Assembly (NCBI GenBank): GCA_051294905.1
Contig: CM119372.1
Location: 22,012,001 to 22,076,000, forward strand
DNA: 64,000 nucleotides
From: Botryllus schlosseri
Lineage: Eukaryota
Reading direction: 5' to 3'
Part shown: piece after piece, positions 5,581 through 39,699 of the stretch
How positions within the stretch are numbered: position 1 is the stretch's first letter
How the letters are laid out: each line of letters begins with the position of its first letter
Made by a program: the position numbers and the translations under genes
The notes under the pieces: model-generated
Database searches by the model: none
What the model saw: only the letters and a program-made list of their open reading frames with translations
Told to the model about the DNA's origin: nothing

Positions 5581-7399
5581 CTGTATGTTGCCCGTCCCTG
5601 CGCTAGATGCTGGACGTGATATGTTCATAAAATATATATTCTTCATTTTGTTGCCGTAAATGTTGCGATCACGCCAAAAGTATCGTCGGAAGCGTTATGC
5701 GTTAATATTGCATTAGCCTCCATCCATCTTTGCGGAAATGGTTTTCGGCACTCCTCGTTCATATCAAAACGAAGACGCGGATTTTCAAGACACGACCACG
5801 TAGCCTACTTCAAGAAATACAGCAGCAGAATTAGCTTTGAAATAATAAAAGTCTACCAATTTCTACATAAATAGTATGATGTTATTTTCATGAAAAATCA
5901 TTATTTTGCTGTTTATCACAAGCCTACACTTCATATTTGCATAAGACAGATGAAGGTTGCTCCATAATAGAGGCAAAATTGAACTAAAACGTGAGGGGGT
6001 CCGCGAGGGTCCGTGACGGTCAAAAGGGGTCCGCGAAGCCGAAAAGGTTGAGAACCACTGATCTAGCATCTCATCTTCAAGGTATTTAGTTGTTATATCA
6101 CAGAAGAAAATGGATTTCGTGGTGGCGCGGTTTCAATTCTTTCATTGGGACAGATCAGATTTCAAACGAATGCTTACAAATTTGCTGCGACTGACAACTG
6201 CAAATCCAAATTGCTATCTCCAACATTTAATTTTTCAGAAACCTTGACAAAACATTCATAAACAGCAATATATGTTTGCATCGGCATGCCTTTGGTAAGT
6301 TGACAGTTTTAGTAATTATGAAGCGAAGCGAAAACAGTCCCATGCTTTTCTCCTTAGTAAAAAATGCAAATTAGGTTACCGCAATGACTTTACAAATATA
6401 GAGGCTTCGCAGACCCCCTGAAAATGCTTCGTGGACCACCAGGGGTCCGTGGACCACCAGGGGTCCGCGGACCCCCGGATGAGATCCACTGGTCCATAGA
6501 AAGAGTCTACGTTCAAAATCTTGAATTTGAGGATATTATCGCTGATTTTGCATCGGCAAAGCCCGAAAAGTTAAGTTTTTAGACGGCTATTGATTTTCTA
6601 TTCGAACAATACATTCGTTCGCTATTTCTTGTCTTGAATATTTTTGGCCTTATTAACGTTGAGACGGTGAGGCTGAGACGCGGCATATTACTTGTAATTA
6701 TTTTCATTGACAAGATTGCTTGAACATGAATCTATATTTATATTAGCTGCGGTCTACTTAGGGTAGGGTTACCATATTTCAGAAACCCCAATTCCGGACA
6801 CTCTTTAGCGCCCTCTATGAGTTATGACGTCACACTAGCAAAGCTTTGGTCGGATACCAGAGGTGCTGGTCACGATCCGGTTCAGGAGTGTGTGGCTGTG
6901 TCTTGTGCAATCGGGCCCGAAAGCTCATGTTTACAGCCTCCTCCCGCCGAAATATACAATGATTTTGAGCTCACACCAGTGGCGGCTCGTCCTATAGGGC
7001 AACTGGGGCATTGCCCCACCTAAAATTCTGTTCAATAACAATTTAACCATTTATAGACGCACAGCAATCAGTATATACCGAGATCACGGCGAAACCCGCA
7101 TTATTCTTGTGCTTTCGCTAACAAATGCCCATACATAGCGAAGTCTCTGCGAAAATCGAGTTCTCTTCTGTGTTTTCGCTTTGTGAATGCCTAGCCGGGG
7201 CTTGCCCCGGTAGCGCTCATAAGCTTTCACTATCTATTCTCTCAAAGCCGCGCACAATAAAGAAACGGTGATTTACTCTCTCCTATTCGTAAAATGGCCG
7301 AGCAAGTGGGGCAACTATGCCTGTCGCCCTTAAGGTGTGATGTAACAATCGTATCTATATCTGAACTCGGTTACCGTGATATGCGTTGACTCGACCTTT

Positions 7400-8400
7400 G
7401 CTGGTATATGTCGATTTTGACGGTGTTTCGCACCATGATAATTCTTGAAACTTTGTACGATATGTCGTGAAGGTGGTATTTAGCACTGCTCCAAGTTTCA
7501 GGCTTGCTACTCAAAGATAAGGGTGGTAATTTCGTTTCCGAAGTTCAGTGTGTGCTGATCTATCATGTACATTGTACAGCAAACAGATTTTACTCAAAAG
7601 CCGGTATTGGTCTCCATTGATTTTGACGATGTTCCATACCGAGATCGGTCATGATATTTGGCACAGTAAGTCTTAATGTTAGTATCGACCGCTGTAATAA
7701 GTTTTAGGTTTGTCACTGAACTATGTGGGTGGTAATTTCGTTTCCAAAGTCGAGTGAGAGCTGACTCTTCATTTATCGCTAACAGATTTACGCAAAAGCC
7801 GTTATTGGTCTCTATTGATTTTAACGATGTTCCATACCTAGATCTGTCATGAGCTTTTGCACGGTATGTCTTGATTTTAGTATCGAACACGGTGCCAAGT
7901 CTTAAAGTTGACGCTCAATGATTGAGGCAGTTATTTCGTTTTCGAGGTCGAGTATGGTAGAGATGCGCGCTGATCTGATACTTAGCCTATACCTACATCA
8001 TTGCGGATCTCACGGAAAAGCCGGTGTCTGTCTGTGCTAATCTAGTCTGCGTTCCATAACGAGATCGGTGATGATATTTCCAATGGTATATCTCGATGAT
8101 CGCATGAAACAGCTAACTAAGATTCTCGGTTTGCATTCAAATATTCACATAATTTTATGTTCGCCAATGTGCATTTCACTGTGAAATTGTGGCCTTCAAA
8201 CCATTTGCTTACAATCCCCTGTCAAATGCGATAGCTATTTCATTTTCGATGTTGGCTAACAGCTGATCATTCGATCAGCCTATTCCTCGATCTATTTTAC
8301 TCAAAGTTCGGTGTTCGTCTGTTTGTATTGATTTTGACAGTGTACCATGCCGGAATGGGTTATGAGATTGCGAATGCTACTTCTCGATGATTTCATGTAA
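7400..8400. repeat. Degenerate ~200-bp tandem repeats inside the hAT left arm
   Basis: Recurring core GATTTTGACGATGTTCCATACCGAGATCGGTCATGATAT near 7415, 7620, 7820, 8050 and 8330. Confidence 0.75.
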
Positions 8401-8600
8401 CAGTATGCTAAGTTTACGGCTTTCATTCATGTATTTATTGATTAATATATTTTCCAACGGCGATTTGGCAGCAGACAGTAAGCCGTATGTGTTGCGTCAC
8501 AATCTCCAGTTTCAAGCCCAAAATGTACTATGTTGTTCCGAGACCGAAGTTCCGAGGCTGCTGTCCTTAGTTCTTCAAAGACCATTCAAATTGATGTTCT

Positions 8601-36767: not shown

Positions 36768-38577
36768 ACGCTGGTACACATCCTGTCTGACTATCGAAAC
36801 ACGCCAATATCATCGCCATATCTTCAAAGTGCGCTGCCAAATATCTCAATGCTCCAATATATCCGCGTAGTTCGAATATATTCCTGGGCGGAGGCATTTC
36901 ACGCAAGGCTCTAATCCTTTCAGGTTGTACTTTGACCGTATCTTCATCCAGCAACACGCCAAGTAGATTTATTTTCTTCTTTCCCACAAAGCATTTATTG
37001 ATACTGATGGTGAGTCGAAGTTCGGCGAGTTGAGCAAACACCAGATCTAGTAATACTAGATGCTGTTCATCTGTCTTTGTTATGAGTAGAATATCGTCAA
37101 TGTATGCGAATATAGGGCATGCCTTTTCTTCTTCTTCTCCCCATCCATGGGTTTTTGCAAGCTTTCTGTATTCTCGCGTCACTGGTTCTACCAATCCTTC
37201 ATTCATCGATTGCTGGAATATTGCCACGGCATTTTTGAGGCCCATAGCTAAACGTTTCCAACGTAGTTCTCTATTTGGTACCGCAATTCCCAAATATTTG
37301 CGATATTGTTCTGGCACCTGCACGTGATAATATGCCTTGGTGAGATCTATCAGCGTTTTCTTCGTCCTTCCCGATGCTTTATGTATCAAATCAGATATCA
37401 GAGGTGGAACTACATTTGTAGCTTTAGTATTGTTGTTGAGAGGTACGAAATCTTGAACTACTCTCATAGGCGGATCCGGTTCACCCGTTAGCCCTTGTTC
37501 GAGGTGCCGTTTCAATGCTTCCTCTTTTTGTCTGTTGTTCTGTTTTTGAGCCACTACAAAGGGTGATGTTTTCCATTCAGAGTTACCTACTTCAATGACG
37601 CCCAATTGTAGGTATCTGTCCAGCTCTTTTTCCAATACCCTAGTATGTACGTCATTACGCAAGGTATACGCCTTTCCTACGAACGGGTCAAGTGACTCAT
37701 CTTTGAGCTCAAGCGTGAACTTGTATGGTAAACCTGAATCACGTGATAGATTTTTTTCCAGGCTGCCTATTTCGTTCTTGTATTTTTCGAAGATTGGTAA
37801 CCAAATCTCAGGCCTTAGCCCTTCCCATTGATTCTCAGGGTCTTCAATATCTGGTGGTTTATAATCTTCATTTGCCAGTATTAGCGCTTCAGCAGCTGCT
37901 CTTTCCAAGTCCTGTTTTAGAGTGGATTCTTCGTCTTCTGCTAGCACGAAGTGACGGACTTCCGCTCCCCAGGCCTTGCCTGTATTCTCTTGTCTCATCT
38001 TAAATTTTGCAGGTTGCTGGGTGTTTACAAGGTGATCAGTCTCATAACCCAAGCCTCTTCTGCCATTATTGCCTTCAGCTCTTACAGGTAATTTTCTACC
38101 TTGCAGGCACTTTCCAAGGCCTTTTCCTTCTTCGTAACCCATGTCTTGACACATCTTCACAGATGCTGGGCTATATATGTATAGTGGTACTTTTTCGTCG
38201 TTTGTTTCCCCTTTCGATTCTTGTAACAGATAAGATATCGGCCTTTCAGTAACAAGTTTGCTAGATTCTGGCGGCACGCGTGGCGGCGTCTTCTCTATTT
38301 GTCCTGAACACGGCATTTCGTATGTCCGTACATCGGTTCCCTCCGAGTACGACAGACTCGTTGTCGGCCTTTCAACGTTACGTGTTGAACACGGCATTTC
38401 GTATTTCCGTACATCGGTAACTTCCGAGTACAACAAATCCTTTATCGGCCTTTCAACACTTTGTGCTGAACACGGCAATTCACATGTGGGATCGTTTGCG
38501 GACTTATCTTGGTCGCTCGTCTTCCCTGAGGCTGCAGTCCTCGTATCTTCTTCAGCACTGGTTTCCCCCCCAGGCAC
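36768..38577 (-). pseudogene. pol: pol 5' half: G-patch and Ty3/Gypsy-type reverse transcriptase; protease missing
   Basis: G-patch KMCQDMGYEEGKGLGK...GRRGLGY; RT motifs SEWKTSPFVV, RVVQDFVPLN, IDLTKAYYHV, MGLKNA, AYIDDILL (YIDD 37093-37104), KC, LLG, ELRGYIG. Confidence 0.95.
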
Positions 38578-39699
38578 GGAGTGTTTTTGTTCCGCACTTC
38601 AAGTCACAGCTCACCGGCAGACCTCTCGTGTCACATACGTTAAAATCACTGTTGTCGGGAGGTTCATGTTACCGTACCATCATTAAGTTACTTGTTTACG
38701 TTGGAAAACGCAATTGTGACGTCATCTTGATAAAAAGTCGCTTGCAGCCCTCGCCCCACCACCCGATATTGTCACGAGCCGCCACTGGCTCACACTATAG
38801 GGTAGTCGATGCAAATTCTGGGGGGGTGCTTGCTATATTAATCTACCTTTGCCCGGACTTACTCACGGGCTATTGTGGAAGCTGATTACATTCAACATAT
38901 TCGCAAACCCCAGAATAAAGGCAGACGCCCCCCCCCCTTCCGTTTGGAACCACTATCTTTGAATAAAGCATTTAAACGGTTTTAACGGTCTCTAGGAATA
39001 TACCGTTCTCCTATAATTGCGATGACAATTAGGCTTATTCAAGTAAATGAAGGTTGTTTTTATTTATATTTCATTGCAATTTTTGCGAGGGTGGTAGTCT
39101 CCATATTAAAATCAATAAATGTGATAGTAAATCGCGCGCAGCGCGAAGAAAAATATCATGCATCGGCATAAATATTCCCAAAATTGTTTTTAAGCTGATT
39201 TACGAAAAAATTATGAACCTACGTCAAGTCTTCAAAATTCCGGACATTTGGCATATTTTAGAAATTCCTCCCGGACGCTAGTTTGAACAGTGAAATTCCG
39301 GACATGTCCGGGAAATTCCGGACGTATGGCAACCCTAACTTAGGGGGCGGCATTTTAAGCGAGAGCCAGGGGCGGCAGGGGTGTTTATAAAGCTCCATGG
39401 TGCGTACCGGCATAAGGCTGATAAACAATCTTGTCAGTAGGACATGAACATGACTTAACGCTGTGCAATTACGCTCCCTGTATTTTCGAGCTCATCATTC
39501 TCCACCCGCTCTACCGATAACTCTGATAATGTGGGTGGGGAATAGTATCTCTATATAGTAATATATGGATTAACCAATATTATTGACAGAATTCATTCAA
39601 ATAATTTGACGACCAGATGCACATAGAAACCAGATTCATATAGCAATCACGCCCTCCCCCAGAAGTTGCATCGATTACCCTGTAGTGTGGGCTCAAAAT

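Follow-up and report, generated by a model that had tools for sequence, protein, structure and literature searches.

We analysed a window of 64,000 nucleotides from Botryllus schlosseri (assembly GCA_051294905.1, contig CM119372.1, here contig 2, positions 22,012,001-22,076,000), which holds a 31.8-kb block of transposon and virus-like DNA between hAT-type terminal inverted repeats (TIRs). This block is probably a composite hAT element, or macrotransposon, that carries an end-joined viral fragment, and not a virus-transposon fusion. Its left end belongs to one non-autonomous hAT subfamily (A-type) and its right end to a second one (O-type), one 8-bp duplication lies outside the two outermost ends, and near-identical copies of the viral DNA at four other loci have no hAT ends. 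From the outside in, the block is a nested stack of a miniature inverted-repeat transposable element (MITE), the composite hAT, the end-joined viral fragment and two later transposons. A sequence-only reading of the window had proposed that a viral genome was inserted as cargo between hAT ends and that these ends, together with a transposase supplied in trans, stand in for an integrase which the virus lacks.

The hAT ends and the probable two-subfamily composite

The 14-nt TIR CAGTGGCGGCTCGT was found three times in the window, at 6977-6990 on the plus strand and at 9468-9481 and 38774-38787 on the minus strand (3 matches against 0.18 expected; at least 3 were reached by 0 of 100 shuffles), and it is perfect and starts with CAG at all three ends. 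A short TIR that begins with CAG and carries a YARNG-type motif is a hallmark of hAT elements. The pieces of the block that derive from hAT elements, and those of the MITE around it, are as follows.

6756-6976: left part of the host MITE, with its duplication ACTTAGGG at 6756-6763 and its inverted end TAGGGTTACCATA from 6764
6969-6976: left 8-bp duplication GCTCACAC, directly outside the left outer end; single copy in the MITE paralog
6977-9481, plus strand: complete non-autonomous A-type hAT of 2,505 bp with TIRs, from the left end L to the internal right end R1
9482-9690, plus strand: internal piece b' of an O-type hAT, directly after R1, 98.6% identical to an element on contig 7
38590-38787, plus strand: subterminal region and TIR at the O-type right end (R2); identity is 96.4% with the contig-7 element and 86-89% with R1
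38788-38795: right 8-bp duplication GCTCACAC, directly outside the right outer end
38796-39345: right part of the host MITE, ending in ...TATGGCAACCCTA, with the duplication ACTTAGGG at 39338-39345

As the sequence-only reading had described, CAGTGGCGGCTCGT stands at 6977 and at 38787 with a perfect GCTCACAC directly outside each, whereas the internal right end at 9481 is followed by GGATTCAA, so that the duplication is present only at the outermost ends. Because these ends share one duplication, the insertion of everything from L to R2 as one hAT unit is supported. The claim that the block arrived as a unit stands to this extent; what was taken for a single element, however, consists of two, A-type on the left and O-type on the right, with a third end at 9481. 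Duplications of 8 bp were found at three independent elements (GCTCACAC in the window, CCAGACGC on contig 7 and TTGTCCAA on contig 13), and for this reason the ends can be assigned to the hAT type, again in agreement with the earlier proposal. The small MITE with an intact duplication of its own, which had been noticed around the block, was likewise recovered: it comprises 6764-6976 and 38796-39337 (755 bp) and has 13-nt inverted ends, TAGGGTTRCCATA, that adjoin ACTTAGGG on both sides, the ACTTAGGG pair taken alone being within chance (2 matches in 21 of 100 shuffles). An inverted (reverse-strand) paralog of this MITE at 39600-39913 has a single GCCCACAC and runs straight into the sequence that follows 38795, and so shows the empty-site configuration.

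The genome searched comprised 495 Mb in 219 contigs, and in each search about 40 of 1,400-2,400 candidates were scored, full-length matches being expected to rank first. The first 300 nt inside 6977 are 98-100% identical to all 40 scored matches of 1,445 candidates, of 29 further copies that were fetched, 23 align colinearly with 6977-9481 in one stretch of about 1.8 kb (94.9-99.2% identity), and the left flanks of A-type copies (18 loci in plus orientation) are mutually different except for one duplicated pair. Since the copies are colinear at high identity and their flanks differ, 6977-9481 is an ordinary, young and complete non-autonomous A-type copy.

The right end of the block has another origin. 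The 200 nt inside 38787 share 88.8% identity with the 200 nt inside 9481, and piece b' resembles 8601-8765 of the A-type copy, with an indel. Contig 7 (L048) contains a complete, virus-free O-type element of 2,587 bp with the same TIRs and its own duplication CCAGACGC, which matches the window at 9482-9690 (98.6%) and at 38592-38787 (96.4%) and, with its left part, at 6973-8348 (85.8%). In this element b' and the right subterminal region lie only about 20 nt apart, and the O-type interior sequence that abuts R1 in the window is continuous. At least 37 ordinary O-type copies matched the right subterminal region when it formed the hAT half of a query across the joint between virus and R2. Public sequencing data were checked over 6700-9800 in four runs with the same organism label, from which short unitigs of the repeat family only were obtained; those that end at 9690 have the same ordinary hAT continuation in all four runs.

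On contig 13 (L049, L050) we found a clean hAT-in-hAT insertion in the same interior region, with TTGTCCAA on both sides of the inner element, and this locus shows the intermediate state before the proposed composite step. The window resembles that state one step further on: R1 still adjoins O-type interior, but L adjoins the host 8-mer that also flanks R2, and an O-type left part is missing. The joint between R1 and b' is otherwise confined to the window, its one further match (86%) being this separate nested insertion. A recurring family with a double right end (6977-9481 followed by sequence from 9482 onwards) was also considered and was rejected on the same distribution of the joint.

The sequence-only reading had seen no transposase in the window, and indeed no hAT transposase domain was detected in the window's open reading frames (ORFs) of at least 150 residues or in 32 smaller ORFs from the viral part and the palindromic transposon described below. 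A genome-wide search for the hAT dimerisation (C-terminal) domain gave 150 scored matches among 2,620 candidates, many of them in long open frames and none of them inside the window.

In the history that we propose, an O-type non-autonomous hAT would have been present at some donor site and a standard A-type copy would have integrated within it at GGATTCAA. The A-type left end and the O-type right end may then have been brought together by a transposase acting in trans, by which everything between both ends would have been moved into the MITE, making the duplication GCTCACAC. In a separate event, a linear piece of a retroelement with env but without integrase and LTRs (about 13.2 kb of a 15.3-kb unit) would have been ligated into a break within the O-type element, about 200 bp short of the right end of that element, by non-homologous or microhomology-mediated end joining. 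Later, a hAT-like element of 1.4 kb (element X) and a palindromic transposon of 13.5 kb would have inserted into the viral DNA. The transposition of the composite and the mechanism by which the viral DNA was joined are the parts of this best explanation that we infer, whereas the anatomy of the block, the virus-free sibling element, the truncated virus, the lack of hAT ends at the other viral copies and the end-joining joints were seen directly. We lean somewhat towards an entry of the viral piece after the movement of the composite, rather than before it; a composite of about 2.9 kb would move more easily than one of at least 17 kb.

Composites of this kind are described for maize Ac in sections of PMC9910405, where macrotransposons of 10.3 kb and 28 kb reinsert or excise. 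The block in B. schlosseri resembles the Ac/Ds macrotransposons in that it uses the outer ends of two hAT elements, keeps an internal extra end, has a single outermost 8-bp duplication and includes tens of kilobases of passenger DNA. It differs from them in that nested copies of diverged subfamilies, and not re-replication neighbours, provide the ends, in that the passenger is viral and in that it is known from sequence alone. The block is a clean natural composite hAT outside maize Ac/Ds, and it suggests that such a composite can hold, and perhaps move, about 30 kb including viral DNA.

The viral passenger and its other copies

Viral DNA makes up 14.0 kb of the 31.8-kb block and was found to be a defective fragment, broken inside gag and inside pol and interrupted by two transposons.

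9691-9712, minus strand: last 22 nt of the viral fragment on the gag side, cut off by element X; 24-nt match to four viral copies
9713-11141: element X, non-autonomous, with TIR CAGTGGTTCTCAACC and the 8-bp duplication GTCTAGGC at 9705-9712 and 11142-11149
11142-23310, minus strand: main part of the viral fragment, defined by homology to the other viral copies and by its ORFs
11142-13094, minus strand: truncated gag-like ORF (the coiled-coil ORF spans 11073-13094)
13539-13811, minus strand: non-coding stretch with 91-bp repeats
14226-14636, 14674-15129, 15199-15801 and 17512-18246, minus strand: four smaller ORFs
18519-21407, minus strand: env-like ORF of 962 residues
21552-22259, minus strand: ORF of 235 residues
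22225-23310, minus strand: 3' part of pol with Ty3/gypsy-type RNase H and Tpt1/KptA domains (ORF to 23337)
23311-36761: palindromic non-coding transposon of 13,451 bp with the 7-bp duplication TTTGTGA
36762-38589, minus strand: 5' part of pol with G-patch and reverse transcriptase (RT) domains (ORF 36757-38397)

We used a copy of the same viral DNA on contig 3 as the yardstick for full-length frames. It encodes a gag-like ORF of 1,147 residues with a CCHC knuckle at residues 983-997 and a pol of 1,195 residues that comprises protease (105-185), G-patch, RT, RNase H and Tpt1/KptA, with Pfam matches to RVP, RVT_1 and RT_RNaseH and one to zf-CCHC that falls slightly short of the curated cut-off (E 0.0015). 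The cargo is therefore a fragment and not the viral genome that had been proposed: the copy in the window stops at about residue 656 of 1147 in gag and about residue 227 of 1195 in pol, so that some 491 C-terminal residues of gag, the CCHC knuckle among them, and some 227 N-terminal residues of pol, the protease among them, are missing. The earlier observation that the virus has no integrase was upheld, with no match to the rve domain in eight large ORFs or 32 small ORFs.

At the left joint between virus and hAT, O-type sequence extends to 9690 and viral homology begins at 9689, with an overlap of 2 nt; on the right, viral homology extends to 38589 and O-type homology begins at 38592, with TT between them. 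About 20 nt of the hAT element are missing at the joints relative to the elements on contigs 7 and 13, and the 9-mer TTTGTTCCG is present at both joints, which look like the products of end joining with short templated filler. A query across the joint between virus and R2 was matched over its full span in the window only (1 of 41 scored matches), its viral half matching only contig 3 and one contig-1 copy, and the joint between b' and the virus has a single occurrence in the genome.

Copies of env and RT at 90-100% identity are located on contig 3, contig 12 and contig 1 (two loci), with a diverged copy on contig 15. Sequence of 40-50 kb was fetched around each of the four near-identical loci. 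These four copies share homology with 11142-38589 of the window, skipping 23311-36761, and beyond the breakpoints of the window copy they continue with mutually shared sequence that is not hAT. Over these 40-50 kb, none of the four loci was found to have hAT ends, a piece like b' or the hAT subterminal region, and no pair of long terminal repeats (LTRs) was detected in the window or in the copies on contigs 3, 12 and 1. We also considered whether the viral ends in the window might be natural termini; this was rejected, as in each of the four other copies shared coding sequence continues across one or both of the breakpoints.

A single non-coding stretch is internal in all five copies, the borders of which fall inside gag or pol. 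One contig-1 copy is continuous from the end of gag into pol, and both termini of the contig-3 copy lie in the gag-pol region and share a repeat of 63 nt. Because of this read-through and this end redundancy, the map can be closed, through the second contig-1 copy, as a circle of 15,312 bp with the order gag, pol, ORF235, env, small ORFs, a non-coding stretch of 1.1 kb (with the 91-bp repeats) and again gag. Counted on this map along the coding direction from the start of gag, the borders calculated from the alignments are as follows.

Window copy: start 4115, end 1968
Contig 12 copy: start 5400, end 2275
Contig 1 copy, second locus: start 2883, end 2265
Contig 1 copy, first locus: start 4702, end 2925
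Contig 3 copy: start 3461, end 3523

All ten borders lie within a 3.4-kb arc around the gag-pol junction (chance about 1e-5 by the arc formula, the two ends of a copy not being independent). The contig-12 copy, with borders inside RT and inside gag, sits in a 159-bp satellite with a target loss of 12 nt, a microhomology of 4-5 nt at each joint and no duplication; satellite arrays extend for more than 10 kb on both sides of it. The contig-3 locus (L031-L034, relative positions 10500-16558 and 29178-30825) contains inverted gag duplications that are 100% identical, with arms of 2,754 bp and a spacer of 551 bp, and a further inverted piece lies beyond the end of pol; this arrangement might be a complex array of end-joined viral pieces or else an error of the assembly.

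Caulimoviridae, as endogenous pararetroviruses (EPRVs), and hepadnaviruses are integrase-less, and their chromosomal copies are fragmentary, permuted, sometimes inverted or in tandem, and have joints of the kind left by illegitimate recombination. The permuted pattern seen here fits such EPRVs and integrated hepadnaviral DNA, and also fits end-joined circles with one LTR. The viral family of the window resembles EPRVs and hepadnaviral DNA in being integrase-less and in having permuted, fragmentary copies end-joined to host DNA (in the window and on contig 12); it differs from them in that it carries env, in that its Ty3/gypsy-like pol includes G-patch and Tpt1/KptA domains, and in being known from chromosomal copies alone. 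Plant EPRVs are also mentioned in passages of PMC10175614.

The two transposons within the viral DNA have relatives nearby. Element X is an internally deleted relative of an element of about 6 kb at 11-6066 of the window, which has an RT ORF at 3805-4641, and ends similar to those of element X recur six times in the window. The palindromic transposon, with arms of about 6.25 kb (99.8-100% complementary), a centre of 944 nt and internal tandem repeats of 41 bp and 124 bp, splits pol between RT and RNase H at a place where the contig-3 copy is uninterrupted. One-armed, diverged relatives of it (88-94% identical) are present at 60.6-63.8 kb of the window and beside the contig-3 viral copy.

Alternative histories of the block

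A Teratorn-like fusion, in which a virus without integrase would integrate by means of hAT ends and a transposase acting in trans, would account for the absence of an integrase domain from all ORFs scanned and for viral DNA lying between hAT ends that share a duplication, and the plentiful hAT C-terminal domains of the genome (the 150 scored matches of 2,620 candidates) could supply the enzyme. We nevertheless regard this history as very improbable, because the other viral copies, which had been expected to be bounded by the same TIRs, lack them at all four near-identical loci (an outcome that the sequence-only reading had itself named as refuting its proposal), neither virus/hAT joint recurs in the genome, the cargo breaks off within gag and within pol, the ORFs of the block lack a transposase domain, the contig-12 copy is end-joined into satellite DNA without hAT, and an abundant relative family whose pol is of the same type without integrase (1,164 candidate places for RT) spreads unaided. 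Since the four other copies have no hAT ends and the junction between virus and hAT occurs once, hAT does not serve this virus as its integration system; a single dead fragment is the most that it can have carried at this site. Teratorn, the piggyBac-herpesvirus element of medaka, has its own transposase, a full viral gene set and multiple copies all with TIRs, as described in parts of PMC10175614. The block in the window is like Teratorn in having viral genes between cut-and-paste TIRs flanked by a target duplication, and unlike it in having no transposase, in its truncated and interrupted fragment, in being present at one locus and in that the other viral copies are without the ends. The idea of hAT as a viral integrase fails, and the block is therefore not a second Teratorn. 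Equally remote, or slightly more so, is an assembly artefact, in which the block or its palindrome would be a mis-join of repeat copies. Inverted arms that are 100% identical, of 6 kb in the window and of 2.75 kb at the contig-3 viral locus, would invite such an error, as would a block that consists almost entirely of repeats; however, the nested pieces have intact ends and matching duplications (GCTCACAC, GTCTAGGC and TTTGTGA), which mis-joins do not make, and pol resumes exactly across the palindrome.

Two further histories keep the viral fragment and the hAT ends as real and differ in how they came together. The block might have formed in situ, if an O-type insertion had made GCTCACAC, an A-type copy had nested in it and the O-type left part had then been lost by deletion or recombination. 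Nested hAT-in-hAT insertions do occur in this region (contig 13), and the two left parts would be direct repeats able to recombine, but a deletion would need one endpoint precisely behind the host 8-mer and the other precisely in front of the first A-type base, and a crossover would have to fall within the first few bases, the left 300 nt being 98-100% identical to A-type and 86% to O-type. Two left ends are not known as a substrate pair for hAT excision in Ac/Ds, which also counts against this history, and we consider it unlikely. A modest chance remains for gap repair, in which viral DNA would have been copied in by template switching after hAT excision, as Ds-like and Pack-type elements acquire sequence. 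The joints, with their microhomology of 2-4 nt, about 20 nt of lost hAT sequence and a short neighbouring repeat, TTGTTCCG, that resembles templated filler, would agree with it, and the insert lies at the inner edge of a subterminal region of about 200 nt that is common to A-type and O-type. Abortive gap repair, however, usually removes large internal parts, and only about 20 nt of the element are missing; moreover, 13 kb would be long for template-switch copying, and the contig-12 copy has the same type of joint in plain satellite DNA with no transposon.

Several points weigh against the composite history that we prefer. The contig-7 O-type element is a paralog of the window locus and not an allele of it. 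No donor site or excision footprint was recognisable with a query from the O-type left part (1,961 candidates, ordinary copies), a search that was uninformative because this left part is itself abundant, and with about 40 of 1,400-2,400 candidates scored per search a further copy of a junction could be missed. The sequence gives no order of events for the entry of the virus and the movement of the composite. The occurrence of TTTGTTCCG at both joints could be read as the target duplication of a staggered, enzyme-made cut, and the perfect palindromes in the assembly (in the window and on contig 3) cast some doubt on its local accuracy.

A Tpt1/KptA domain in place of integrase

The more interesting lead from the window is a retroelement lineage with Tpt1/KptA in the position of the integrase, of which public protein sets hold a few relatives. 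At the C-terminus of pol, where an integrase normally sits, a Tpt1/KptA domain was found in the window (22225-23337, minus strand), in the contig-3 copy (L033:5619-9206, minus strand) and in a member of the relative family (L051:504-4118, plus strand), with Pfam PTS_2-RNA scores of 35-43 bits (cut-off 26). When 26 sequences were aligned, R59, H60, R92, H106, H128, R148 and H152 proved to be retained in the viral domain; of these residues, R59, H60, R92 and R148 are conserved in the 26 sequences and match the Arg-His...Arg...Arg tetrad that is conserved in Tpt1/KptA enzymes. The domain was modelled with a mean predicted local distance difference test score (pLDDT) of 78.4, and in a Foldseek search of PDB all 21 matches at E <= 0.001 were Tpt1/KptA, including KptA complexes with ADP-ribosylated 5'-phosphate DNA. 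The domain is putatively active. Enzymes of this class remove 2'-phosphates from RNA and can ADP-ribosylate 5'-phosphorylated DNA ends, and a role in the capping or repair of nucleic-acid ends would be our guess.

This architecture is not confined to the near-identical copies. The relative family, with RT identity of 46-47%, has 1,164 candidate places for RT in the genome, and the one pol of this family that was inspected (L051) has 1,205 residues with RT, RNase H and a full-length Tpt1/KptA, again without integrase. A search of 1.84 billion representative proteins with this Tpt1/KptA domain gave 40 matches, seven of which were scanned: five combine a Ty3/gypsy-type RNase H with Tpt1/KptA, three of these also have RT, and rve is present in none of the seven. 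A word-indexed search with the C-terminal part of pol returned three weak matches only. In the literature searched we found no description of a retroelement pol with Tpt1/KptA; in one paper that came up, TPT1 denotes a different protein.

Ty3/gypsy elements that carry env of the gB or F type, with intact gag, pol and env, are reported from cnidarians, ctenophores, tunicates and others in sections of PMC13524379, and in the text of that source on these elements neither Tpt1 nor the phrase "lack integrase" occurs. The viral family of the window is like the errantiviruses in its gag with CCHC, its protease, RT and Ty3/gypsy-type RNase H, and its env that follows. It is unlike them in lacking integrase and LTRs (five copies compared), in a pol that ends in Tpt1/KptA, in four extra small ORFs after env and in circularly permuted copies with end-joined borders. 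We tentatively suggest, as a possibility rather than a likelihood, that the family represents an undescribed reverse-transcribing element which bears env, lacks integrase and LTRs, combines pol with Tpt1/KptA on a circular map and is end-joined near the gag-pol junction, one fragment of it having been carried by hAT here. If the pararetrovirus-like behaviour seen in the five copies examined holds, it would raise the questions of how enveloped retroelements persist independently of an integrase and of what an enzyme that modifies nucleic-acid ends does for such retroelements.

A signal peptide and a C-terminal membrane anchor can be recognised in the translation of the env-like ORF, as can a basic RSKR site and numerous N-glycosylation motifs. 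No match was obtained against PDB sequences (best E = 1), and by language-model features only its nearest counterparts would be herpesvirus gB and rhabdovirus G (score 0.89), which we take as a lead only. The genome also contains more distant env relatives of 800 residues (22-25% identity). Of ten such loci, nine have env 13-34 kb upstream of a same-strand pol, and one has pol about 3.4 kb upstream of env.

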